Positions 1 through 41,186 of a DNA stretch of 41,186 nt are shown piece after piece. Under the pieces are notes generated by a model, which saw only the letters and a list, made by a program, of their open reading frames with translations, did no database searches and was not told where the DNA came from. Position numbers and translations under genes: made by a program. The stretch lies in the IMG/VR virus record IMGVR_UViG_3300045988_168338; one strand, given 5' to 3'. Each line of letters begins with the position of its first letter. The stretch's first letter is position 1. This stretch comes from a virus.

Positions 1-119
1 AGATCGCCGAACAGCAGACGCGCATCGTGGAACTGGAGCCGAAAGCGCGGTTCGCGGACGCCGTGGCCGCGTCCGACGGCACGTGCCTGGTCGGCGAGCT
101 CGCGAAGATGCTCCGGCAA
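1..119. repeat. Terminal direct repeat (identical to 41068-41186), the signature of a circularly closed contig
   Basis: The first 119 nt (agatcgccgaacagcag...ctccggcaa) reappear exactly as the last 119 nt of the window. Confidence 0.95.
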
Positions 120-380
120 AACGGGATGGACATCGGCCAGAACAGACTGTTCCGCCTCCTGCAGGCTGACGGGTATCTCGGCAAGTCCGGTTCGAATCGC
201 AACGTGCCGACACAGCGTGCGATGGACCTCGGCCTGTTCCGTATCAAGGAGACCACCGTCACCCATGCGGACGGGCATACCACGGTCAGCCGCACTCCGA
301 AGGTAACCGGCAAGGGGCAGCGCTACTTCATCGACCGGTACTGGGGTCGCACCCAGCCGACGTTGGAAGCGGGTGCGTGA
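1..380 (+). CDS. Phage antirepressor, C-terminal KilAC/ANT-type part (continues 40665..41186 across the junction)
   Basis: The frame of ORF 27..380 is in phase with the ORF starting at 40665 once 1-119 is overlaid on 41068-41186. The tail reads ...NRNVPTQRAMDLGLFRIKE...VTGKGQRYF. Stop TGA 378-380. Confidence 0.85.
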   Translation, partial: IAEQQTRIVELEPKARFADAVAASDGTCLVGELAKMLRQNGMDIGQNRLFRLLQADGYLGKSGSNRNVPTQRAMDLGLFRIKETTVTHADGHTTVSRTPKVTGKGQRYFIDRYWGRTQPTLEAGA

Positions 381-904
381 TGGAAAACCTCAGCATCGAG
401 ATTCCTGACGAGGAATGCGTCAAGTTATTCCGCTACGAGGATGGCGACGGTGTCGCGGCGTATCTTCTGTTGTTCCCGGAACACGACATGAAAGCGGTCA
501 AGCCGCGTATCGATGCGCAGCTTGACCACGAGATGGCGATGTCAGTAAATGCGTCCAACGCTCTGTTTGGGGGCGTCGTCGATCGCCCACCACAGCGCGT
601 TGGACGGGTTGATGTGGATGGTGTCCGAGCTGGTGCCCTTGACGGATCCTTTGACGGTAACGACCGTACCGTTCCTGGCCGCTTCCATCAGATCCTCCTC
701 AAGGCTCGCTCGATCCTGTCCCTCGGCAAGCTTCACATGGACCGGTTCGCCGGTTCCTGTGTCGAGCGTGAGTCTGTCACTCATAATTCTTCTCCTAACT
801 GTTCGGCCCGCACGTCGGAAATGCGGGGTGACGCCGTTTTTAGGAGGGGGCCGGGCGGTTCTCCTAACGCCGCCCGGCATCACACACGCAAAGGAGGCGC
901 GTGA
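380..904 (+). CDS. Hypothetical protein, probably 3'-disrupted (only about 380-541 looks coding)
   Basis: ATG 380 overlaps the upstream stop (TGATG). Third-position GC is high only for the first ~54 codons. The rest is the exact codon-antisense of 542..784 and translates to R/G-rich sequence. Confidence 0.3.
   Translation: MENLSIEIPDEECVKLFRYEDGDGVAAYLLLFPEHDMKAVKPRIDAQLDHEMAMSVNASNALFGGVVDRPPQRVGRVDVDGVRAGALDGSFDGNDRTVPGRFHQILLKARSILSLGKLHMDRFAGSCVERESVTHNSSPNCSARTSEMRGDAVFRRGPGGSPNAARHHTRKGGA
542..784 (-). CDS. Hypothetical 80-aa protein
   Basis: ATG at 784 lies 7 nt after AGGAGA (rc of 791-796). The composition is balanced (MSDRLTLDTGTGEPVHVKLAEGQ...). Third-position GC is higher than in the overlapping + frame. 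Confidence 0.6.
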   Translation of the reverse strand: MSDRLTLDTGTGEPVHVKLAEGQDRASLEEDLMEAARNGTVVTVKGSVKGTSSDTIHINPSNALWWAIDDAPKQSVGRIY

Positions 905-906
905 TG
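789..906. repeat. 118-bp bidirectional control cassette, copy 1
   Basis: 112/118 identical to 1789-1906 with no indels. Carries the SD and start for both flanking genes, two hairpins (807-827, 851-877) and a 27-codon uORF (821-904). Confidence 0.9.
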
Positions 907-1167
907 ATTGTTGCAACCAAGCCAAGCGCTCTTAGCGTGGTGGCGTCCGTCATCTGCGCGATATCCGGAATCTGGATGTTTGCCTGTGGACTCAAATCTC
1001 TGAATCAATTCCAGATTCTTCTTGGCTGCTCCCTTCTGCTCAACGGATTGCAGATTGGCGCTAGATGGGTGATGCTGCGGGAACTGAACAGGAACTACCT
1101 GCTCATGCGCCGATCTGTGCTATGTACGGAACCGCCGCGAGAGCAAGAGCGGGAATCTGAACGATGA
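904..1167 (+). CDS. Small hydrophobic protein (two predicted TM segments)
   Basis: AGGAGG (892-897) then N6 then ATG 904, supplied by the repeat. Hydrophobic stretches ALSVVASVICAISGIWMFACGL and ILLGCSLLLNGL. Lower local GC. The 3' end overlaps convergent gene 1103..1783 by 65 nt. Confidence 0.35.
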   Translation: MIVATKPSALSVVASVICAISGIWMFACGLKSLNQFQILLGCSLLLNGLQIGARWVMLRELNRNYLLMRRSVLCTEPPREQERESER

Positions 1168-1783
1168 AATCAGCGAACATCCCACCCATGTATTTCTCCT
1201 TGATCTTCTGCCAGCGGGATTGGTCCTTGGCGTGCGATTCGGCGATGTACAAGGCTCCAAGCAGACGCTGCATGGCGTCATTGAGCTCGAACGAGCCGCA
1301 GCTCTCCCAATCGTTGACGCATCGGCGAACCTCGGTCGTGAGATTAAGCACATACGACTTCAACGCCGCCGGCATGCTCGCATCCTCTTTCAGGCACTGC
1401 TCGATTTCAGAAAGGAAGCCGGAGATGTTCTCCCTGTTCTTGTCCTCCATCCGCACATCCAGCTCTACCCACCTGTCGGCGATGGTCTGCAAAGCCAGAA
1501 CCGCCGCGGCATCCAACCTATCGGTCGCACCGGCCAACGTGCTGAAGTTCCGACGATGTCCGTCCATGGCATCGTCGGAGAATGATTCCCACAAGGCTTT
1601 CCAAATACCGGGCATCTGTGATTTCGCCATGTCGAGACGTTTCACGCCACGGGCGATCAGCGTATCAAGTGTTCTTTCGGTGCTGCACATGGCCGTGTAT
1701 GCGGGCAGCACGTCCTTCCGGAATCCGTCGGGCTGCTGCTCGACCTCAAAAAACTGCAGTAGGTATTCGGCTGCATTCGACAT
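1103..1783 (-). CDS. Hypothetical 226-aa helical protein with a C-terminal hydrophobic anchor
   Basis: ATG 1783 lies 7 nt after AGGAGA (rc of 1791-1796), the same context as 784. The C-terminus reads FADFIVQIPALALAAVPYIAQIGA. Confidence 0.7.
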   Translation of the reverse strand: MSNAAEYLLQFFEVEQQPDGFRKDVLPAYTAMCSTERTLDTLIARGVKRLDMAKSQMPGIWKALWESFSDDAMDGHRRNFSTLAGATDRLDAAAVLALQTIADRWVELDVRMEDKNRENISGFLSEIEQCLKEDASMPAALKSYVLNLTTEVRRCVNDWESCGSFELNDAMQRLLGALYIAESHAKDQSRWQKIKEKYMGGMFADFIVQIPALALAAVPYIAQIGA

Positions 1784-1788
1784 TGATG

Positions 1789-1906
1789 CTTCTCCTAACT
1801 GTTCGGCCCGCACGTCGCAAATGCGGGATGACACCGATTTTAGGAGAGGACCGGGCGGTTCTCCTAACGCCGCCCGGCATCACACACGCAAAGGAGGCGC
1901 GTGATG
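1789..1906. repeat. 118-bp bidirectional control cassette, copy 2
   Basis: Offset exactly 1000 bp from copy 1. The last 56 bp are identical. All 6 substitutions fall outside the two stems. Confidence 0.9.
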
Positions 1907-2137
1907 GTCCCGCAATACGAGCTCAAGGACGCGAGCCGTATCCCGTTGAAGGACAGGCTCGCATGGACGATCCCGCAGGCCGCGAGCCTGTACGGGATCG
2001 ACTACGACGGTCTGCGACAGGCTGTCAACCAGGGCGACATAGACACGTTTCGTCCGCCAAGCAAACGAGGAACGCCTTCCCGCCGTCACATCAGACGCGA
2101 GGAAATGGACCGATACGTCAAATCGTTGGAGGAGTAA
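1904..2137 (+). CDS. Excisionase/MerR-like helix-turn-helix protein
   Basis: LAWTIPQAASLYGIDYDGLRQAVNQGDIDTF...HIRREEMDRYV matches the Xis-type HTH pattern. SD AGGAGG then N6 then ATG. Confidence 0.7.
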   Translation: MVPQYELKDASRIPLKDRLAWTIPQAASLYGIDYDGLRQAVNQGDIDTFRPPSKRGTPSRRHIRREEMDRYVKSLEE

Positions 2138-5182: not shown

Positions 5183-6093
5183 GCATGAAGGCATTGGAGT
5201 GGGCCATGTACTACGTGCCCGCCGAAATGGTCAAAGGAGCTTTGCTGCGCATCCTGCTCCTGCTTGCCGACCACGCTGACACGCAGGGCAAGGGAGCTTT
5301 CCCGAGCCAGAAGCGCATCGTGGCCTTGACAGGATACAGCCGTCGCACCATCCAGAACGGCCTGCACGATCTGGAGACGGCCGGACTGATTCGCAGGGGA
5401 GACCAGCGGATCACCGAGCATCTCGGGAAATACCGTCCGATCGTCTGGGACCTCACGATGAAGGATTTCAGGGGCGCAAAAACTACGCCTCTGGAACAGC
5501 AGCCGCAAGAGGCGCAGACCACTGCGCCCCTAAACAAGTTGGAGGGGCGCAATCAGGGGCGCAAAAAAACGTCTCTAGGGGCGCAATCAGGGGCGCAACA
5601 TGACTGCGCACAGAACCTATATAAGGAAGAACCATATATAGAACCTAGAGAGAGTAACGCGCGCGCGAGAAAACCAATCCCAATACCAGCCGACTGGAAA
5701 CCCTCTGAAGAACACCGGGCGCTCGCCGACCGGCTCGGCATCGACTGCGACATCGAAGCCGACAAATTCCGCGACCGCGCACTCGACTCGGGAGCCCGCT
5801 CGGCCGACTGGAACGCGAAATACCGCAACTGGCTCGTCAAAGGCAAGGAACGCGGATTCGCCACACCAAAAGATTCCAACGCTCGCCGACGGTATACGTG
5901 GGGCAGCGAAGAGGTCAAACGCGTGCTCGGCCCGATAGCCTGCGAAGGCACGGACACGTACATGGAGCTCGCATGCAAGGTCGCCGACCTGCTCAACCAG
6001 GGCTTGGACCCGGACATGCTGCGCCGTCAGCTCGCAAACGTGCCCGACAACGTATTGGCCGAACAATTGTTCGAACAGGAGGCGGCGGCATGA
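5179..6093 (+). CDS. Replication initiator-like winged-helix protein (origin embedded in its gene)
   Basis: N-terminal wHTH (LLLLADHADTQGKGAFPSQKRIVALTGYSRRTIQNGLHDLETAGLIRR). C-terminal IPADWKPSEEH...DKFRD...DWNAKYRNWL motif typical of phage replication proteins. Iterons lie in the linker region. Confidence 0.7.
   Translation: MSMKALEWAMYYVPAEMVKGALLRILLLLADHADTQGKGAFPSQKRIVALTGYSRRTIQNGLHDLETAGLIRRGDQRITEHLGKYRPIVWDLTMKDFRGAKTTPLEQQPQEAQTTAPLNKLEGRNQGRKKTSLGAQSGAQHDCAQNLYKEEPYIEPRESNARARKPIPIPADWKPSEEHRALADRLGIDCDIEADKFRDRALDSGARSADWNAKYRNWLVKGKERGFATPKDSNARRRYTWGSEEVKRVLGPIACEGTDTYMELACKVADLLNQGLDPDMLRRQLANVPDNVLAEQLFEQEAAA
5471..5650. repeat. Putative origin of replication: five GGGGCGCAA iterons plus an AT-rich block
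   Basis: Iterons at 5471, 5544, 5556, 5578 and 5590, with one inverted TGCGCCCC at 5523. Followed by cagaacctatataaggaagaaccatatatagaacctagagagag (5611-5654). Confidence 0.6.
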
Positions 6094-6281: not shown

Positions 6282-6682
6282 GCGACCGGCAATTCCAGGA
6301 ATCGAAACGCATCGCCTTGCAACGTCAGGGCTGGCATTGCCTGCGCTGCGGGACGAACATCCACGACCCGTCACTATGGCCTGGACGCAGTGGCCATCAC
6401 CGGCAGTTGCGCCGTCGTGCCGATCCCGCCGTGCGTGACCTGCCGTGCAACATCGTCGAACTGTGCGGTTCCGGCACGACCGGCTGTCATGGTTGGGCGC
6501 ACGCGCATCCGGCCGAAGCGGAACGGTTCGGCTACATCATCCCGAGCTGGCGGGATCCGCTCAGCGTGCCGATACGCGACTGGAACGGCGACTGGTGGTG
6601 GCTGCTGTCTGACGGCACGGCACAACGGCTCACACAAATCGAAATCATCGAATGGCAAAGCGATTGGAAGGAACAATCATGA
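6278..6682 (+). CDS. HNH-type endonuclease-like protein
   Basis: Cys/His pattern: CLRCG...HHRQLRRR...NIVELCGSGTTGCHGWAH. Confidence 0.65.
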   Translation: MSDRQFQESKRIALQRQGWHCLRCGTNIHDPSLWPGRSGHHRQLRRRADPAVRDLPCNIVELCGSGTTGCHGWAHAHPAEAERFGYIIPSWRDPLSVPIRDWNGDWWWLLSDGTAQRLTQIEIIEWQSDWKEQS

Positions 6683-8080: not shown

Positions 8081-8830
8081 ATGGATCGGAACTGCCAGAA
8101 CTGCGATAAGCGGGTCGAGGAGTCATGGACGTTGTGCAAGACGTGCCGGCGCGGGTACGCGCGGCTCCTGCACCGGCTGCGCGTCAACCTGTACCGGCTC
8201 CAGTCGGTCGCGCGCCGAGAATACCGTCTCACGGAGCCCGGCAACGGAGGCAGGCCGCAGGGAGGCGACGCGCCCGCACCCGTCGACCTGCACGCCGTCG
8301 ACCTGCTCGACCAGACCGAGCAGGCCATCGAACAGGCATGCGCGGACGCGGGAACATGGCTCGGCAGGTGGCAATGGCTCGCAAAACGAGCGCCAGTCAT
8401 CCTGCCCCTCCTGTGCAGGGCGTCGAACGCCGGATGGCACATGCGGCGCCTCACCCGGGCATGCGAGCGAATCGAGCGGATCGTCGACCGCGTGCCACGC
8501 TCGCGTAGGATCATCGGCGTATGCCCCGAATGCGGACGCGAAGTCCTCGCCGCGAAAGGCGAGACGCTGAGGCTCTGCAAATGCGGCAACCCCGTCAACG
8601 TGACCGAGCTGCGGGAGCAAAGCCGAGCCAAGGCCGAGGCAATGCACATCACCAAAACCCCGGCAGGCATGAGTCAATGGCTCAGGGAAAACTACGGGTA
8701 CGAGGTCAGCCGCAAGACGATAACCGATGCTTTGCGACGCGGGAAGCTGCCCGGCAGCAAGCCGGTCGAAGGCGGCTATTGGGAGTTCAGCATCCGCGAG
8801 ATAGTGGCTTTCGCCATGTCCAAGGCTTGA
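8081..8830 (+). CDS. Zinc-ribbon / C-terminal HTH DNA-binding protein (possible late regulator)
   Basis: Two CxxC pairs (CQNCD...CKTC; CPECG...CKCG) and a C-terminal Xis-like segment (MSQWLRENYGYEVSRKTITDALRRGKLPG...WEFSIREIVAF). Confidence 0.6.
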   Translation: MDRNCQNCDKRVEESWTLCKTCRRGYARLLHRLRVNLYRLQSVARREYRLTEPGNGGRPQGGDAPAPVDLHAVDLLDQTEQAIEQACADAGTWLGRWQWLAKRAPVILPLLCRASNAGWHMRRLTRACERIERIVDRVPRSRRIIGVCPECGREVLAAKGETLRLCKCGNPVNVTELREQSRAKAEAMHITKTPAGMSQWLRENYGYEVSRKTITDALRRGKLPGSKPVEGGYWEFSIREIVAFAMSKA

Positions 8831-34533: not shown

Positions 34534-35754
34534 ATGGCGGGCAAGACGAAAAACAGGAGGACCGGGGGATCCGGAAGCGTGTTCCAGGACTCCAAAGGAC
34601 GATGGCACTTCCGCAAGGACATGGGAACCGACCCGGCGACCGGACGCAGACGCCCGCCGATCGAAGCCACCGGCATGGTGAAAAGCGAGGCGCGCGCCCG
34701 CTTCCAGGCGAAGATAGCGGAATGGGAACGGGACGGAAGACTCCCCAGCAAGGACGGCCCCAAGACCGCTGACTACTTCGAACGGTGGATGGGGGAGCAC
34801 CGGGCGGCCATCAATCCCACCACATGGCGCAACGAATCCAGCTGGATGCGCACCATGAACGCGATCATCGGCGACATACGCCTCAACCGGCTCACCGCCA
34901 ACGACATCAACGGAATGTGCAGGAGACTGCGCCGCACACGCAAAAGCAAGACCGTCAACACCTATCTCGCAGTCCTCGGCGCCATGCTCCGAACCGCGAA
35001 ACGGGACGGACTCATCGCCGACGACCCGATGGAAAACGTCGGACGAATGCCGGAGGACCGGTACGAACGCCCCATCCTCGACGTCGCCGACCCAGCGAAG
35101 GTCATCGAGGCCGCGCTCGCCGAGCCCGATCCGGCGGTCGCCGTGTTCGACAGCCCGGACGAGCGTGAGAAGTGGGCACTCATGTTCGAACTCGCCTTCA
35201 CCACGGGCATGCGGCCGGGGGAGAGGTATGGCCTGATGCCCTACCAGCTGGAACTGCATCATGGGATTCCCGTCATCAACGTGTGCCAGCAGGCCAAGCC
35301 GATACCAGCCGGCGCCACGATCCCGGATTGGATGGAAGCCGAGCATCTGGATGGGGCGATCTGGCTGACCAAACCGAAGACCGCCAAAGGCGTGCGGACG
35401 GTTCCCATTCCGCAGGGGCTTTGGGACCGGCTTTGGGCGCATATCGTCAAATGGGGCGTGCCATCGCATGGACTGGTGTTCACCAATCTTTACGGCCATC
35501 CCATCAGACGGGACAACGAGGAGAAGCGTTGGCGCCGCGCCCTGAAGATGGCGGGACTGCCGTACGTCGACATCTACAGCGCGCGGCACTGGCTCGCCAC
35601 CGAACTCGCCGCCGCCGGCGCGAGCGACGAGGAGCGCACCGCCATCATGGGCCACACCGACATCCACACCACCAGCGTCTACACGCATTGGAGGGAACGG
35701 CGACTCGCCGAAACGCTCGACGCCGCCCTGCCAGACCTCCGCGACGGCCAGTGA
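34534..35754 (+). CDS. int: Tyrosine integrase
   Basis: Catalytic motifs: TGMRPGE, ...ARHWLATEL..., MGHTDIHTTSVYTHW (R-H-R-Y). Confidence 0.95.
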   Translation: MAGKTKNRRTGGSGSVFQDSKGRWHFRKDMGTDPATGRRRPPIEATGMVKSEARARFQAKIAEWERDGRLPSKDGPKTADYFERWMGEHRAAINPTTWRNESSWMRTMNAIIGDIRLNRLTANDINGMCRRLRRTRKSKTVNTYLAVLGAMLRTAKRDGLIADDPMENVGRMPEDRYERPILDVADPAKVIEAALAEPDPAVAVFDSPDEREKWALMFELAFTTGMRPGERYGLMPYQLELHHGIPVINVCQQAKPIPAGATIPDWMEAEHLDGAIWLTKPKTAKGVRTVPIPQGLWDRLWAHIVKWGVPSHGLVFTNLYGHPIRRDNEEKRWRRALKMAGLPYVDIYSARHWLATELAAAGASDEERTAIMGHTDIHTTSVYTHWRERRLAETLDAALPDLRDGQ

Positions 35755-38914: not shown

Positions 38915-39307
38915 TCATTCGTCCGGCGTCTCGGCTTCGAGGCGTGCGTTCGGATCCCTGTTGGCGGCCACGTCATAGTCTTCGGGGTGCGCGGCGATAC
39001 GGTCGATGAGATCATCCGTGAGCTGAGACTCGCGCTCGCGGGCGGCGTAGGCGCGGGCGGCATCGCTGCCCAGGGCGCGGGTGAATAGCTCTTTCAGCGT
39101 CATCCCGCATACATTGGCAATGCGCTCGCAGTCCGAAATTGTTAGCGGTGCGTCAAAACGAGCTCGAACAAACCAATAATTGCGGCTGAACCCGCATTCC
39201 GCTGCGAATTCAGTTGCAGTCATGCCGCTCTTGGCTTGTAGTGATTTGCAATACTGCATGATGCTCCGCGCACCAGCGGTCACATCGTTATTGGCTCTTG
39301 TTCCCAT
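38915..39307 (-). CDS. CI-like XRE-family repressor
   Basis: HTH SGMTATEFAAECGFSRNYWFVRAR, divergent from the cro-like gene across palindromic operators. An alternative SD-preceded start lies at 39259. Confidence 0.8.
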   Translation of the reverse strand: MGTRANNDVTAGARSIMQYCKSLQAKSGMTATEFAAECGFSRNYWFVRARFDAPLTISDCERIANVCGMTLKELFTRALGSDAARAYAARERESQLTDDLIDRIAAHPEDYDVAANRDPNARLEAETPDE

Positions 39308-39426: not shown

Positions 39427-39675
39427 GTGGCAAGCGAAGCGGAACTTATGAGAGACAACCTTCGCGGAGAGATGGCTCGCAGGCACAAAACACAAGAAGA
39501 TATCGCGAAAACGATTGGATGTGGACGGCCGCTTGTGAACCGAAAACTCAATGGAGAAAAAGACTTCACGCTGGGCGATATGGAAAACATCGCTGCAATG
39601 TTCGACATGACTTTTCTGCAGCTGCTAACGCTGCTCCTCCAGCCAATCGACAACATCAAGCAGATCAGACCATGA
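39427..39675 (+). CDS. Cro-like XRE-family HTH protein
   Basis: SD AAGGAGG then GTG 39427. KTQEDIAKTIGCGRPLVNRKLNGEKDFT. Confidence 0.75.
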   Translation: MASEAELMRDNLRGEMARRHKTQEDIAKTIGCGRPLVNRKLNGEKDFTLGDMENIAAMFDMTFLQLLTLLLQPIDNIKQIRP

Positions 39676-40664: not shown

Positions 40665-41186
40665 ATGAACAATGAAATCCAACGATTCGATTTCAGGGGC
40701 GCATTATTGCGCACCTTGACCGATGAGGCGGGGGAGCCTTGGTTCGTCGCCAAGGACGTGTGCGACATCCTCGGCCACTCAAACGTGAGCATGGCGCTTG
40801 ATCGTCTCGATGATGACGAACGGTCTAAGTTCAACTTAGGGCGTCAGGGTGAGACAAACATCGTCAACGAAGCCGGCCTCTACGTGCTCGTGCTTGGCTC
40901 CCGCAAGCCGGAAGCTCACGAGTTCAAACGTTGGGTGACGCACGAGGTGCTGCCGTCCATCCGCAAAACCGGCGGCTACATCCCGACGTCCGAGTCGGAT
41001 TCGGATGAGGACATCATGGCCAGGGCCGTGCTCGTCGCGCAGAAGACCATCAAACAAAAGAACCAGCAGATCGCCGAACAGCAGACGCGCATCGTGGAAC
41101 TGGAGCCGAAAGCGCGGTTCGCGGACGCCGTGGCCGCGTCCGACGGCACGTGCCTGGTCGGCGAGCTCGCGAAGATGCTCCGGCAA
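40665..41186 (+). CDS. Phage antirepressor, N-terminal BRO-N domain part (continues at 120..380 after circularisation)
   Basis: SD TAAGGAGAA then ATG 40665. FDFRGALLRTLTDEAGEPWFVAKDVCDILGH...NEAGLYVLVLGSRKPEAHEFKRWVTHEVLPSIRKTGGY. Open at the window end. Confidence 0.85.
   Translation, partial: MNNEIQRFDFRGALLRTLTDEAGEPWFVAKDVCDILGHSNVSMALDRLDDDERSKFNLGRQGETNIVNEAGLYVLVLGSRKPEAHEFKRWVTHEVLPSIRKTGGYIPTSESDSDEDIMARAVLVAQKTIKQKNQQIAEQQTRIVELEPKARFADAVAASDGTCLVGELAKMLRQ
41068..41186. repeat. Terminal direct repeat (identical to 1-119)
   Basis: Exact 119-nt match to the window start. Confidence 0.95.

Follow-up and report, generated by a model that had tools for sequence, protein, structure and literature searches.

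Organization of the locus

The analyzed stretch (the window) comprises 41,186 nucleotides (IMG/VR record IMGVR_UViG_3300045988_168338) and represents a circular temperate Bifidobacterium phage with 97% identity to Bbif-1. Between its antirepressor gene and a small HTH_17 gene lie two leftward genes, each accompanied by one copy of a structured intergenic block of 118 to 121 bp, here called the cassette. The genes and signals of the region are the following.

27 to 380, plus strand: 3' part of the antirepressor gene (repeat D16, Bbif-1 annotation); the left module boundary is its end, GCGGGTGCGTGATG, which is similar to GGAGGCGCGTGATG at the end of the cassette
380 to 904, plus strand: ORF running antisense through the 80-aa gene and cassette copy A; its TGA overlaps the ATG at 904
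494 to 529, minus strand: terminator-like hairpin just 3' of the 80-aa gene, with a 14-bp stem followed by TTTCATGT, from a consensus scan alone
542 to 784, minus strand: 80-aa orphan gene, cargo of module 1, with a GC3 pattern that fits minus-strand coding
782 to 798, minus strand: ribosome-binding site (RBS) region of the 80-aa gene, GUUAGGAGAAGAAUUAUG, with GGAG at 795-792 and ATG at 784-782
786 to 906, plus strand: cassette copy A, from the base after the complement of the leftward ATG to the rightward ATG; covariance model score 144.9 bits
837 to 842, minus strand: candidate -10 hexamer of a leftward promoter, in copy A TAAAAA, the T at -7 being lost
901/904 to 1167, plus strand: 88-aa hydrophobic ORF, always found with the 226-aa module and always starting at a GTGATG junction
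1103 to 1783, minus strand: 226-aa orphan gene with a hydrophobic C-terminus, cargo of module 2; its minus frame is the better conserved one (147 vs 79 bits)
1164 to 1904, plus strand: ORF antisense to the 226-aa gene, linked to the 88-aa ORF by an ATGA overlap and running through cassette copy B; its TGA overlaps the ATG at 1904
1781 to 1798, minus strand: copy B equivalent of the leftward RBS region
1786 to 1906, plus strand: cassette copy B; covariance model score 150.5 bits
1837 to 1842, minus strand: candidate -10 hexamer TAAAAT for the 226-aa gene, on the same basis as in copy A
1901/1904 to 2137, plus strand: HTH_17 early gene (excisionase/MerR-like, 77/78 aa, below the Pfam cut-off), before which the modules are inserted

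A repeat finder returned the cassette as a direct repeat of 121 nt (786-906 and 1786-1906) with 94% identity and a start-to-start distance of 1000. In a pairwise alignment of 789-906 with 1789-1906, 112 of 118 positions were identical without any indel, and the final 56 nt were the same in both copies. The six mismatches (818, 828, 833, 837, 847 and 850) all avoid the stems of hairpins H1 (807-812/822-827) and H2 (851-858/870-877). A preliminary description of this DNA had reported a duplicated 118-bp cassette with two hairpins and substitutions outside both stems, which alignment and sequence bear out; the flanking ORFs (leftward 80 and 226 aa, rightward 88 and 77/78 aa) were likewise as described. 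The block TTCTCCTAAC is found four times in the window, exclusively within the two cassettes, and is invariant in cassette alignment A2. In shuffled sequence it was matched 0.56 times on average, and none of 100 shuffles contained five matches. Five of the six differences between the copies are an A in copy B. A DGR template/variable repeat pair was considered and rejected, as these G/A variants are also found segregating in loci with a single copy and the repeats lie between genes. The spacing of exactly 1000 bp, noted in the preliminary description, carries no special meaning and is simply the length of one module. Other two-copy loci show spacings of 523/524 bp (25 cases), 1113 bp or 2223 bp, and one metagenome contig carries three copies spaced by 524 and 1000.

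The leftward proteins, which the preliminary description did not recognize, matched nothing in Pfam, PHROG or PADLOC. The 80-aa family is present in 58 loci; its AF2 model (pLDDT 74) had no PDB fold match. Homologues of the 226-aa protein were found in gut metagenomes only, none with a Pfam domain, and its AF2 model is all-helical with a pLDDT of 57, too low for a fold search. The 88-aa ORF overlaps the 226-aa gene and has weak coding statistics (GC3 just 0.59); it may be a bridging ORF only.

The cassette accompanies leftward genes and bounds their modules

With an identity of about 95% and one to three copies each, the cassette is present in hundreds of Bifidobacterium phage and gut-metagenome contigs. 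The cassette core was detected in no fewer than 119 contigs from IMG/VR and no fewer than 119 from gut metagenomes, and mean identity to copy A was 95.6% over 199 full copies. Bbif-1 carries two copies. PMBT6 also carries the cassette, at 94.7% identity, whereas the adjacent HTH proteins are just 54% identical. Further, a 15-mer scan of genome contigs gave four genuine loci among the 120 listed, the remainder being chance matches; the four were the B. moukalabense and B. pongonis genomes, a 'Collinsella' MAG and one other. A covariance-model search covering the window and ca. 1.5 Mb of loci yielded no additional diverged copy, and the degenerate pattern TTAGGAG-N-TCTCCTAAC matched mostly unrelated hairpins. 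Instead of a local duplication organizing four genes, as the preliminary description had it, we are thus dealing with a population-wide Bifidobacterium prophage junction that travels with each leftward gene.

The left edge of the cassette adjoins the start of a leftward ORF in nine unrelated families and 17 sublineages, and the cassette is invariably located at the 5' end of a leftward orphan gene. In L352 and L357, the same HTH gene is found with neither leftward gene nor cassette, and its ATG overlaps the stop of the preceding gene. In L352 that gene is the antirepressor, whose stop directly overlaps the HTH start; the window carries two inserts at this point. The HTH_17 gene lies downstream of 116 of the 137 cassette copies, and copy A precedes a non-HTH ORF. 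The 226-aa module was seen behind four different upstream genes, with GTGATG at every joint. Further, the window and Bbif-1 differ by entire modules with end points at cassettes, and the end points of indels and replacements between related phages fall in near-identical short cassettes flanking variable ORFs. These comparisons support the earlier view of a reusable structured unit, placed divergently between a leftward and a rightward start and supplying both ribosome-binding contexts, which recurs next to accessory genes of unassigned function beside the antirepressor. The idea of a single accessory 'system' is not supported. Nothing shows joint action of the leftward genes, which are independent, interchangeable modules, and the HTH gene assigned to that system is one of the usual conserved early genes and follows the antirepressor in direct coupling where no insert is present (L352).

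In the arrangement suggested by these data, insertion would take place between the antirepressor gene and the small HTH_17 gene in the rightward early operon of temperate Bifidobacterium phages. A module consists of a GTGATG stop/start junction, an optional short plus-strand ORF, one leftward orphan gene and a cassette ending in GTGATG. Because it is ca. 95% identical among otherwise different phages, the cassette would double as a homologous-recombination joint for the gain, loss and swap of modules, and recombination at this joint would account for the two copies in the window.

The only TAnnnT -10 motif of the cassette is located on the minus strand. Its consensus is TAAAAT, and the variants TAGAAT, TAAACT, TAGACT, TAAGAT, TAAAGT and TAACAT keep T-A-x-x-x-T; seven sequence variants retain TAnnnT while the middle bases vary. 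The motif is homologous to that of three diverged mini-junctions with a leaderless layout (TAGAAT-N7-ATG). No -35 element was found at normal spacing (TTAGGA would be 19 nt away), and a generic promoter scan returned no site in the cassette on either strand. Measured against a sigma-70 divergent layout (-10 and -35 at 16-18 nt on both strands), the minus strand has the -10 alone and the plus strand lacks a TAnnnT. Since P0/P0b pairing and the conserved TTAGGAG constrain the same T, A and T, conservation of the -10 is not independent proof of a promoter. We infer that the cassette carries a leftward promoter active in the prophage, from which the leftward genes would be expressed. Transcription of the 226-aa gene would start near 1829 with a leader of ca. 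47 nt, and the candidate -10 of copy A is probably weakened by its TAAAAA sequence. The minus strand would thus supply the leftward gene with a promoter (-10 TAAAAT), a leader of this length and a strong RBS, GUUAGGAGAA-N5-AUG. Bidirectional control, as proposed initially, is probably not a property of the cassette, which has one TAnnnT, on the minus strand, and no detectable plus-strand promoter.

RNA pairing is conserved on the plus strand

The plus-strand RNA of the cassette is predicted to fold into three consecutive parts, for which coordinates of copy A are given.

789 to 849 (copy B: plus 1000), plus strand: domain 1, with helices P0 (789-798/840-849), P0b (803-806/834-837) and H1 (807-812/822-827), in the MFE fold
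851 to 877 (copy B 1851-1877), plus strand: hairpin H2, formed by CCGGGCGG, the loop UUCUCCUAACG and CCGCCCGG
878 to 906 (copy B 1878-1906), plus strand: RBS hairpin H3, with CAUCAC 878-883/GUGAUG 901-906 and CGC 887-889/GCG 897-899, as a variant of the MFE fold

The minimum free energy of the plus-strand cassette was -59.4 kcal/mol (z = -3.3) and that of the minus strand -53.8 kcal/mol (z = -3.2). A covariation analysis across related phages, as suggested at the outset, was run on 94 distinct cassettes and showed conserved plus-strand pairing. In the fold alignment 98% of cells are paired, seven pairs change on both sides and none of 500 shuffles reaches the observed values; the covariation rests on few diverged lineages. 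The set is shallow, with a model effective sequence number of 1.03 and mostly single substitutions. The two strands differ clearly in their substitutions. G·U-compatible pair types numbered 27 on the plus strand vs 8 on the minus strand (p=0.0009), and for H1 and H2 together 10 vs 0 (p=0.001). Single substitutions in these two stems read C-to-T on the plus strand at 10 pair types and never G-to-A. Mutation bias does not account for the stem asymmetry, since G/A polymorphisms are common wherever columns do not pair. Because substitutions keep G·U pairing on the plus strand, the rightward RNA is indicated as the selected fold. Judged by this substitution pattern, the hairpins are selected as plus-strand RNA, neither as DNA palindromes nor as elements of a leftward leader. 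With pairing kept on one strand through wobble and compensatory changes, the cassette also bears the general mark of a structured cis-regulatory RNA.

Conservation extends over all three parts of the fold. In domain 1, P0 is 99% and H1 100% paired, with compensatory changes from A-U to G-C, and H1 has five plus-only and no minus-only G·U pair types. H2, one nucleotide downstream of domain 1, is 99.6% paired with one double change from G-C to A-U, and again shows five plus-only vs no minus-only types. Its loop is complementary to UUAGGAG at 840-846 and also, over 5-6 bp, to the Shine-Dalgarno sequence (SD) at 893-898. The loop of H3 holds this SD, AAGGAGG (892-898), and the start codons GUG901 and AUG904 lie in its stem. 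Helices 5 and 6, which form H3, are 93-95% paired with four pairs altered on both sides, and diverged right ends rebuild an H3-like hairpin, e.g. CCACC/GGUGG in L366. The H1 3' flank is not conserved among diverged lineages. The basic layout does not require the fold, since the mini-junction phages have neither H1 nor H2. A terminator scan found no intrinsic terminator (GC-rich hairpin plus U-tract) in either window copy; some variants have a U-tract after H2 (CAUUUUUG in L027/L369, UUUU in PMBT6), and L111 has a clear terminator.

On the plus strand, the 27-codon uORF described earlier (821-904) does exist, although as the tail of the longer ORFs 380-904 and 1164-1904 and not as a stand-alone frame. 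Two of the five substitutions inside it are synonymous, as had been noted. A conserved uORF peptide was rejected: read in this frame, the stem substitutions change the amino acid, and indels of 1 nt are also seen. The overlap of stop and start is retained in five independently diverged right ends. The first ca. 55 codons of ORF 380-904 (MENLSIEIP...) look like a genuine small gene, and the openness of ORF 1164-1904 has P=0.023 under synonymous-codon shuffling. The window and most families show a chain of antisense ORFs, which is missing from the 151-aa and 216-aa families. Its p values are ca. 0.05 at family level and ca. 0.02 for the combined shuffle. Antisense chains accompany 28-41% of control genes with lengths of 161-240 aa, and since ordinary genes show spanning or chained antisense ORFs in 28-84%, depending on length, we regard the chain as suggestive only, weakly above background. 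The reverse assignment, with the plus ORFs as real genes and the leftward ones as shadows, was discarded given the 147 vs 79 bits in favor of the minus frame and the Ser/Arg/Cys-rich plus translations.

Proposed role and relation to known systems

Taken together, we consider it probable, with some reservation, that the 118-121-bp block is a portable divergent junction of backward-facing 'moron' modules in the early operon as well as their recombination joint. The fold would act in translation. With no plus-strand promoter of its own, the cassette would be transcribed within the early operon. Its RNA would fold P0/P0b/H1, then H2 with its anti-SD-like loop, then H3, with the SD in the H3 loop and GUG/AUG buried in the stem. 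Two routes would allow the next rightward gene to restart behind the insert: ribosomes could initiate directly at the cassette SD, or those that had translated across the antisense of the insert could terminate at the UGA and initiate anew at the AUG it overlaps. Such read-through translation of the plus ORFs would fit the observed geometry of an upstream ORF stop adjoining a start, as in tap/repA and repY/repZ.

A more specific and tentative proposal, which we put forward as a possibility more likely to fail than to hold, is that the cassette and GTGATG modules form an adaptor with which an operon under translational coupling can take up a gene that faces backward and is expressed from the prophage, while polarity is avoided. 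Here ribosomes on the early transcript would translate without a break along ORFs maintained as open frames opposite the insert and would melt the cassette RNA on the way, to terminate at the UGA and initiate again at the overlapping AUG. Free ribosomes would find the downstream RBS closed by H3 and by the H2 anti-SD loop, and the products of downstream early genes would then come solely from genuine early transcripts that are being translated. During lytic growth, antisense RNA and convergent transcription would silence the leftward gene.

An RNA element unrelated to the local RBS is in our view unlikely, though plus-strand selection would be shared by it. It could be a processing or stability element, a terminator/attenuator, a put-like antiterminator (the resemblance of the fold to put RNA is our presumption) or a decoy RNA. 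The single-nucleotide gap between domain 1 and H2, the U-tracts after H2 in L027/L369 and PMBT6 and the clear terminator in L111 would suit such an element, and RNA anti-CRISPRs exist in Bifidobacterium prophages (PMC10651486). Against this, the window copies have neither a U-tract nor a terminator call, Rfam covariance models gave no match within 786-906 or 1786-1906 even at E<=10, and there is no BLAST similarity to the tested I-C/I-E repeats, with the H1 3' flank unconserved in diverged lineages. Processing or stability variants would include an RNase III site or a 5' hairpin guarding the downstream mRNA after cleavage of a sense/antisense duplex.

Rather improbable is a bidirectional DNA control region in which the H1/H2 palindromes and three CTCCTAA/TTAGGAG motifs serve as operators, e.g. 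for the HTH_17 protein, with promoters both ways. In its favor are the divergent layout, the very high conservation of an element with differing flanks, the HTH_17 gene following 116 of 137 copies, and the position that H2 would have in the inferred leftward promoter, between its -35 and its -10. Against it, C-to-T-only substitutions at 10 stem pair types are not expected of a DNA palindrome, the plus strand has no TAnnnT, copy A is followed by a non-HTH ORF, and there is no cassette before the HTH gene where the leftward gene is absent. A neutral recombination scar or selfish repeat, conserved through frequent gene conversion between phages, seems very improbable to us. It would explain module ends at cassettes and GTGATG junctions and the high identity across host species (94.7% in PMBT6 vs 54% for HTH proteins), but strand-specific pairing, compensatory changes and the kept SD, start and TAnnnT argue for purifying selection. 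We can hardly credit a translational switch in the leftward leader, in which the anti-SD CUCCUAA would pair by turns with the true SD and with a decoy in the H2' loop: mirror-image pairings and a stable minus fold (see above) exist, but only 8 minus-only vs 27 plus-only pair types are seen, none of the 8 in H1/H2, and with the inferred start ca. 7 nt past the -10, H2' and the anti-SD would lie upstream of the leftward transcript.

The portable junction favored here has several partial counterparts. Classical morons, as conceived by Hendrix and Juhala, are extra genes with their own promoter and terminator, inserted between conserved genes of lambdoid and other temperate phages and expressed from the prophage. 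Our inserts are similarly present or absent between conserved neighbors (window vs L352), and carry orphan, often membrane-anchored cargo beside immunity and antirepressor genes. As to their own promoter and terminator, the minus-strand TAnnnT is conserved and would provide the former, with no -35 found; a terminator-like hairpin was found for one of the two leftward genes of the window, behind the 80-aa gene alone. To our knowledge, classical morons have no shared conserved junction sequence, whereas here one junction is reused by nine cargo families and rebuilds the translation start of the downstream gene. Coupled leader/RBS-hairpin control is known from R1 tap/repA, the IncI-alpha repY/repZ pseudoknot and MS2-type operator hairpins. 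Like the tap/repA-type leaders, the cassette has an upstream ORF stop overlapping a start, a start buried in a hairpin and a neighboring loop complementary near the SD. In contrast to them, its upstream ORF is mostly antisense to another gene and there is no sequence homology.

The PeSL 'mobile regulatory cassettes' of T4-type phages (Arbiol et al. 2010, PMC2839356; Comeau et al. 2014, PMC4122927) combine an early promoter with a terminator stem-loop in virulent T4-like myoviruses, where the flanked genes share one orientation. Both kinds of element are short, near-identical composite regulatory repeats that flank variable unassigned genes and act as homologous exchange points, and in both cases related phages differ by entire gene modules ending in repeats. 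Our cassette differs in its Bifidobacterium host, temperate phage, counter-oriented cargo and an inferred promoter facing away from the operon. Its stem-loops have no U-tract and are selected as operon-strand RNA, and there is no sequence relationship. Neither a promoter nor a terminator was found on its plus strand; a PeSL-type element would have both, in the direction of the flanked genes. Racr, or solitary repeat units (SRU), are defined by CRISPR-repeat similarity (Camara-Wilpert et al. 2023, PMC10651486) and resemble the cassette as structured, conserved, non-coding hairpin RNAs that are intergenic in prophages, including a Bifidobacterium prophage, and adjoin small orphan genes. H1 is superficially type I-E repeat-like (CCCGCA...GCGGG(G/A)TGA.CC), and the 5' side is I-C repeat-like. 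No BLAST-short match was obtained between the cassette and the few repeats compared (RacrIC1, one I-C and two I-E repeats), and the portion of the SRU tables examined contains no cassette sequence. CRISPR-repeat mimicry as the main reading was rejected on the missing match and the H1 3' flank, unconserved in diverged lineages.

Prophages of Bifidobacterium are abundant in the gut of infants and adults alike, and hardly any of their accessory genes has been characterized. One conserved 120-bp junction marks the entry of at least nine orphan families, many of them membrane-anchored, and is therefore a handle for cataloguing candidates for lysogenic conversion, exclusion or defence across metagenomes. 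As a defined crossover site, it would also account for the mosaic structure of these phages. Should operon expression across a counter-oriented insert indeed be preserved by the plus-strand fold and the antisense ORFs, the cassette would represent an undescribed answer to the polarity and lost translational coupling that come with moron acquisition.

The duplicated cassette and its surroundings

Repeat finding and pairwise alignment agree that the duplicated structured block is real. A direct repeat of 121 nt (786-906 and 1786-1906, 94% identical, 1000 bp apart) was returned by the repeat finder, and alignment of 789-906 with copy B showed 6 substitutions (818, 828, 833, 837, 847 and 850), 0 indels and an identical 3' half. 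Checking of the sequence positions bore out the preliminary description in that all 6 substitutions lie outside the stems of hairpins H1 and H2. Four copies of the 10-mer TTCTCCTAAC are present, all of them inside cassettes (0.56 expected in the window). All four flanking ORFs exist as described, but the leftward ones end at 784 and 1783, the position 785 being wrong. The proposed 27-codon upstream ORF is likewise present but is actually the 3' end of long plus-strand ORFs (380-904 and 1164-1904).

The cassettes come after the antirepressor gene and before a small HTH_17 gene, the first of an SSB/ParB block, and this region is 97% identical to Bifidobacterium phage Bbif-1. Positions 1-119 of the window recur unchanged as its terminal 119 nt (41068-41186). 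The window is thus a temperate phage contig with 41,067 unique bases, closed into a circle (or terminally redundant), and its closing junction falls within the antirepressor gene. Upstream of the cassettes lie:

34534-35754, integrase ORF
38915-39307 (minus), small ORF of a divergent pair
39427-39675 (plus), second small ORF of this pair

From its translations, the divergent pair is read as repressor-like and cro-like, and if these roles are right, the rightward early operon would begin about 2-3 kb before the cassettes. Two other stretches contain repeats. At 2618-2890, about 270 bp of the early operon are non-coding, which is unusually long; this gap holds a tandem 15-mer (CTCATATCAATCAAT / CTCATATCAATCAAG, 2846-2875) and gave a sub-threshold tRNA-Sec-like Rfam match of only 16.7 bits and no tRNA by ARAGORN. 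Clustered short direct repeats at 5468-5601 (TCAGGGGCGCAA three times; a 22-mer twice, 34 bp apart), together with an inverted repeat (5523-5540/5568-5585), lie inside or adjoining an ORF 3' of the ParB-like gene and could be iterons, an origin or parS-like sites.

Strand-specific folding of the cassette RNA

For the plus-strand RNA, the predicted fold (-59.4 kcal/mol, z = -3.3) has three domains:

Domain 1 (plus): helices P0 (789-798/840-849) and P0b (803-806/834-837), and H1 (CCCGCA/TGCGGG, 807-812/822-827)
H2 (plus): one nucleotide beyond domain 1, stem CCGGGCGG/CCGCCCGG (851-858/870-877)
H3 (plus): CAUCAC/GUGAUG and CGC/GCG, with the Shine-Dalgarno (SD) sequence AAGGAGG in the loop and start codons in the stem

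Across 66 distinct sequences, 98% of cells were paired and both-side changes occurred at 7 pairs; the observed pairing values were reached by 0 of 500 shuffles. Compensatory forms in diverged lineages were:

H1: CCCGCG/CGCGGG
P0b: UUGG/CCAA and CUGG/CCAG
H2: A-U replacing G-C
H3: CCACC/GGUGG

Among 94 distinct cassettes, 27 pair types are standard (G·U) on the plus strand alone versus 8 on the minus strand alone (binomial p = 0.0009), and within H1 and H2 these numbers are 10 versus 0 (p = 0.001). Since unpaired columns often show G/A polymorphism, mutation bias is excluded and the asymmetry reflects selection. This is the decisive point: the fold is selected in the rightward transcript. A strand-specific RNA fold, as predicted from these comparisons, is well supported. 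Candidate roles are ribosome-binding-site gating, upstream-ORF coupling, RNA stability or processing, and attenuation.

An RNA element with a function different from the junction role proposed below is unlikely, the cassette having no Rfam family and resembling none of the tested CRISPR repeats. That it is a DNA operator region is rather improbable; going by the asymmetry, the fold is not selected as a DNA palindrome. A neutral recombination scar, set beside the pairing values, is very improbable, and a leftward-leader switch is hardly credible, since by the same asymmetry the fold is not selected as a leftward leader either.

The H2 loop of 11 nt is nearly invariant (few variants, e.g. UCCUCCUAACG) and is complementary over 7 bp to UUAGGAG and over 5-6 bp to the SD. 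A different Bifidobacterium phage (L111, ~8680-8760, minus strand, reverse-complement coordinates) has, between two genes of its late region, a 12-bp GC hairpin with the exact H2 loop (TTCTCCTAACG), followed by TTTTTCTCTC (U-tract), then the SD hairpin GCGC-UUAGGAG-GCGC and an ATG. Here the H2 loop motif is reused in a true terminator-plus-RBS setting. Complementarity and the L111 hairpin hint that the H2 loop may pair with the SD.

Modules, cargo and distribution

The cassette is a population-wide element, real and widespread. Its 17-nt core was found in at least 119 contigs of IMG/VR, and a 34-base cassette pattern matched at least 119 contigs from human-gut metagenomes. Bbif-1 carries 2 cassettes and B. 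thermophilum phage PMBT6 carries 1, and it also occurs in B. moukalabense and B. pongonis genomes. Full copies are on average 95.6% identical to copy A; the PMBT6 cassette is 94.7% identical, in contrast to 54% for the neighbouring HTH proteins. No earlier description was found in Bifidobacterium prophage papers within reach of our literature search.

Phages carry 1-3 cassettes at spacings of 523/524, 1000, 1113 and 2223 bp, so the exact 1000-bp spacing emphasized earlier is a coincidence of module length. One metagenome contig (L395) has 3 consecutive cassettes spaced 524 and 1000 bp. Spacings in two other contigs (L404, L453) are an unusual 362 and 578 bp and therefore imply further, shorter modules.

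The leftward ORF start always adjoins the left edge of the cassette, as CAT-N4/5-CTTCTCCTAAC. These ORFs form 9 unrelated families of 60 to ~232 aa (17 sublineages at 70% identity), several with an N- or C-terminal hydrophobic segment. Searches of Pfam, PHROGs and PADLOC gave no match besides marginal coiled-coil-type ones for the 193-aa family. Homologues of the 226-aa protein came from gut metagenomes only and had no Pfam domain, and its AF2 model was of low confidence; the model of the 80-aa protein (pLDDT 74) had no PDB neighbour. On the right, the neighbour is one of two HTH_17 families in 116/137 copies. The same HTH gene occurs at L352 and L357/358 with neither leftward gene nor cassette, the preceding gene's stop overlapping the HTH ATG (...GCGGGTGCGTGATG). 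The cassette as part of the HTH gene was rejected, being absent from such relatives.

The module comprising 907-1102, the 226-aa gene and its cassette is found behind 4 different upstream genes and also behind another cassette, joined exactly at GTGATG in every case. Comparison of the window with Bbif-1 shows gene orders that differ by entire modules:

Bbif-1: antirepressor, 151-aa gene, cassette, small ORF, 80-aa gene, cassette, HTH
Window: antirepressor, small ORF, 80-aa gene, cassette, 88-aa ORF, 226-aa gene, cassette, HTH

Because of these whole-module differences and GTGATG joints, the exchange unit opens with GTGATG, may include a plus-strand ORF, and continues with a leftward gene and a cassette whose end is again GTGATG. 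Judging from the sequences, the 120-bp cassettes apparently provide the homology for module gain, loss and replacement. A recombinant at L025 (~6283-6416) has an upstream plus-strand gene fused into mid-cassette, with CACGTCG of the H1 loop as the microhomology; the left half of the cassette is missing together with any leftward gene, but H2, H3 and the start remain.

Expression of the modules

Neither promoters nor terminators were called in the cassette by a generic scan. On its minus strand, the consensus ...CCGATTTTAGG... gives TAAAAT (1842-1837 in copy B), with the leftward ATG ~47 nt downstream, and T-A-x-x-x-T is kept in seven variants (TAAAAT, TAGAAT, TAAACT, TAGACT, TAAGAT, TAAAGT, TAACAT). 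Three diverged relatives of ~35 nt, the mini-junctions, have a leftward membrane-protein gene on one side, an HTH gene on the other, and neither H1 nor H2:

L330, 1802-1835
L359, 2449-2501
L360, 2472-2501

By sequence, they look like stripped-down cassettes. Their homologous block is TAGAAT, exactly 7 nt ahead of the leftward ATG (minus strand), which is leaderless Actinobacterial promoter geometry. From this geometry and the kept T-A-x-x-x-T, we infer a leftward promoter with TAnnnT as its -10. However, no -35 was found at normal spacing from it, and the T-A...T bases are also constrained by pairing. Moreover, copy A is atypical: it has TAAAAA at 842-837, in place of the TAnnnT seen in almost every other copy, and by eye no TAnnnT on either strand. 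If TAnnnT is the -10, the 80-aa gene of the window may depend on read-through from the copy B promoter. The plus strand of the cassette has no comparable element, so that expression of the rightward genes most likely relies on upstream read-through.

The plus strand of the window carries an unbroken ORF chain with overlapping stops and starts:

to 380 (plus), antirepressor
380-904 (plus), ORF
904-1167 (plus), ORF
1164-1904 (plus), ORF
1904-2137 (plus), HTH_17 gene

Similar chains run over most leftward genes at other loci, and five independently diverged right ends retain a stop that overlaps the rightward ATG. The conserved coding frame is the minus one (147 versus 79 bits). In ordinary genes of these GC-rich phages, taken as controls, chained antisense ORFs occurred at 28-41% (161-240 aa) and 74-84% (60-100 aa). 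In synonymous-codon shuffles, the 225/226- and 232-aa lineages had P of 0.02-0.05 and the other lineages 0.16-0.67; the 151-aa and 216-aa families have no chain, and combined significance was ~0.02 (family level ~0.05). Read-through translation of the chain is thus put forward as a hypothesis.

In its way of working, the cassette resembles classical morons and PeSL cassettes. Its junction sequence is common to several cargo families, unlike classical morons, which are not known to share one. PeSL are mobile regulatory cassettes of T4-type phages (PMC2839356, PMC4122927); compared with these, the Bifidobacterium cassette lacks the T4 promoter-terminator composite, belongs to a different phage type and has counter-oriented cargo. 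Composite, phage type, orientation and shared junction rule out membership in either class.

In conclusion, the cassette is a mobile regulatory junction of accessory-gene modules. It probably joins counter-oriented moron modules, serving cargo expression on the minus strand, the next start on the plus strand and a DNA joint. On the minus strand, it would act as promoter, leader and ribosome-binding site of the cargo gene; on the plus strand, as a structured intercistronic leader that would restore translation initiation at the next early gene; and at the DNA level, as a recombination joint.
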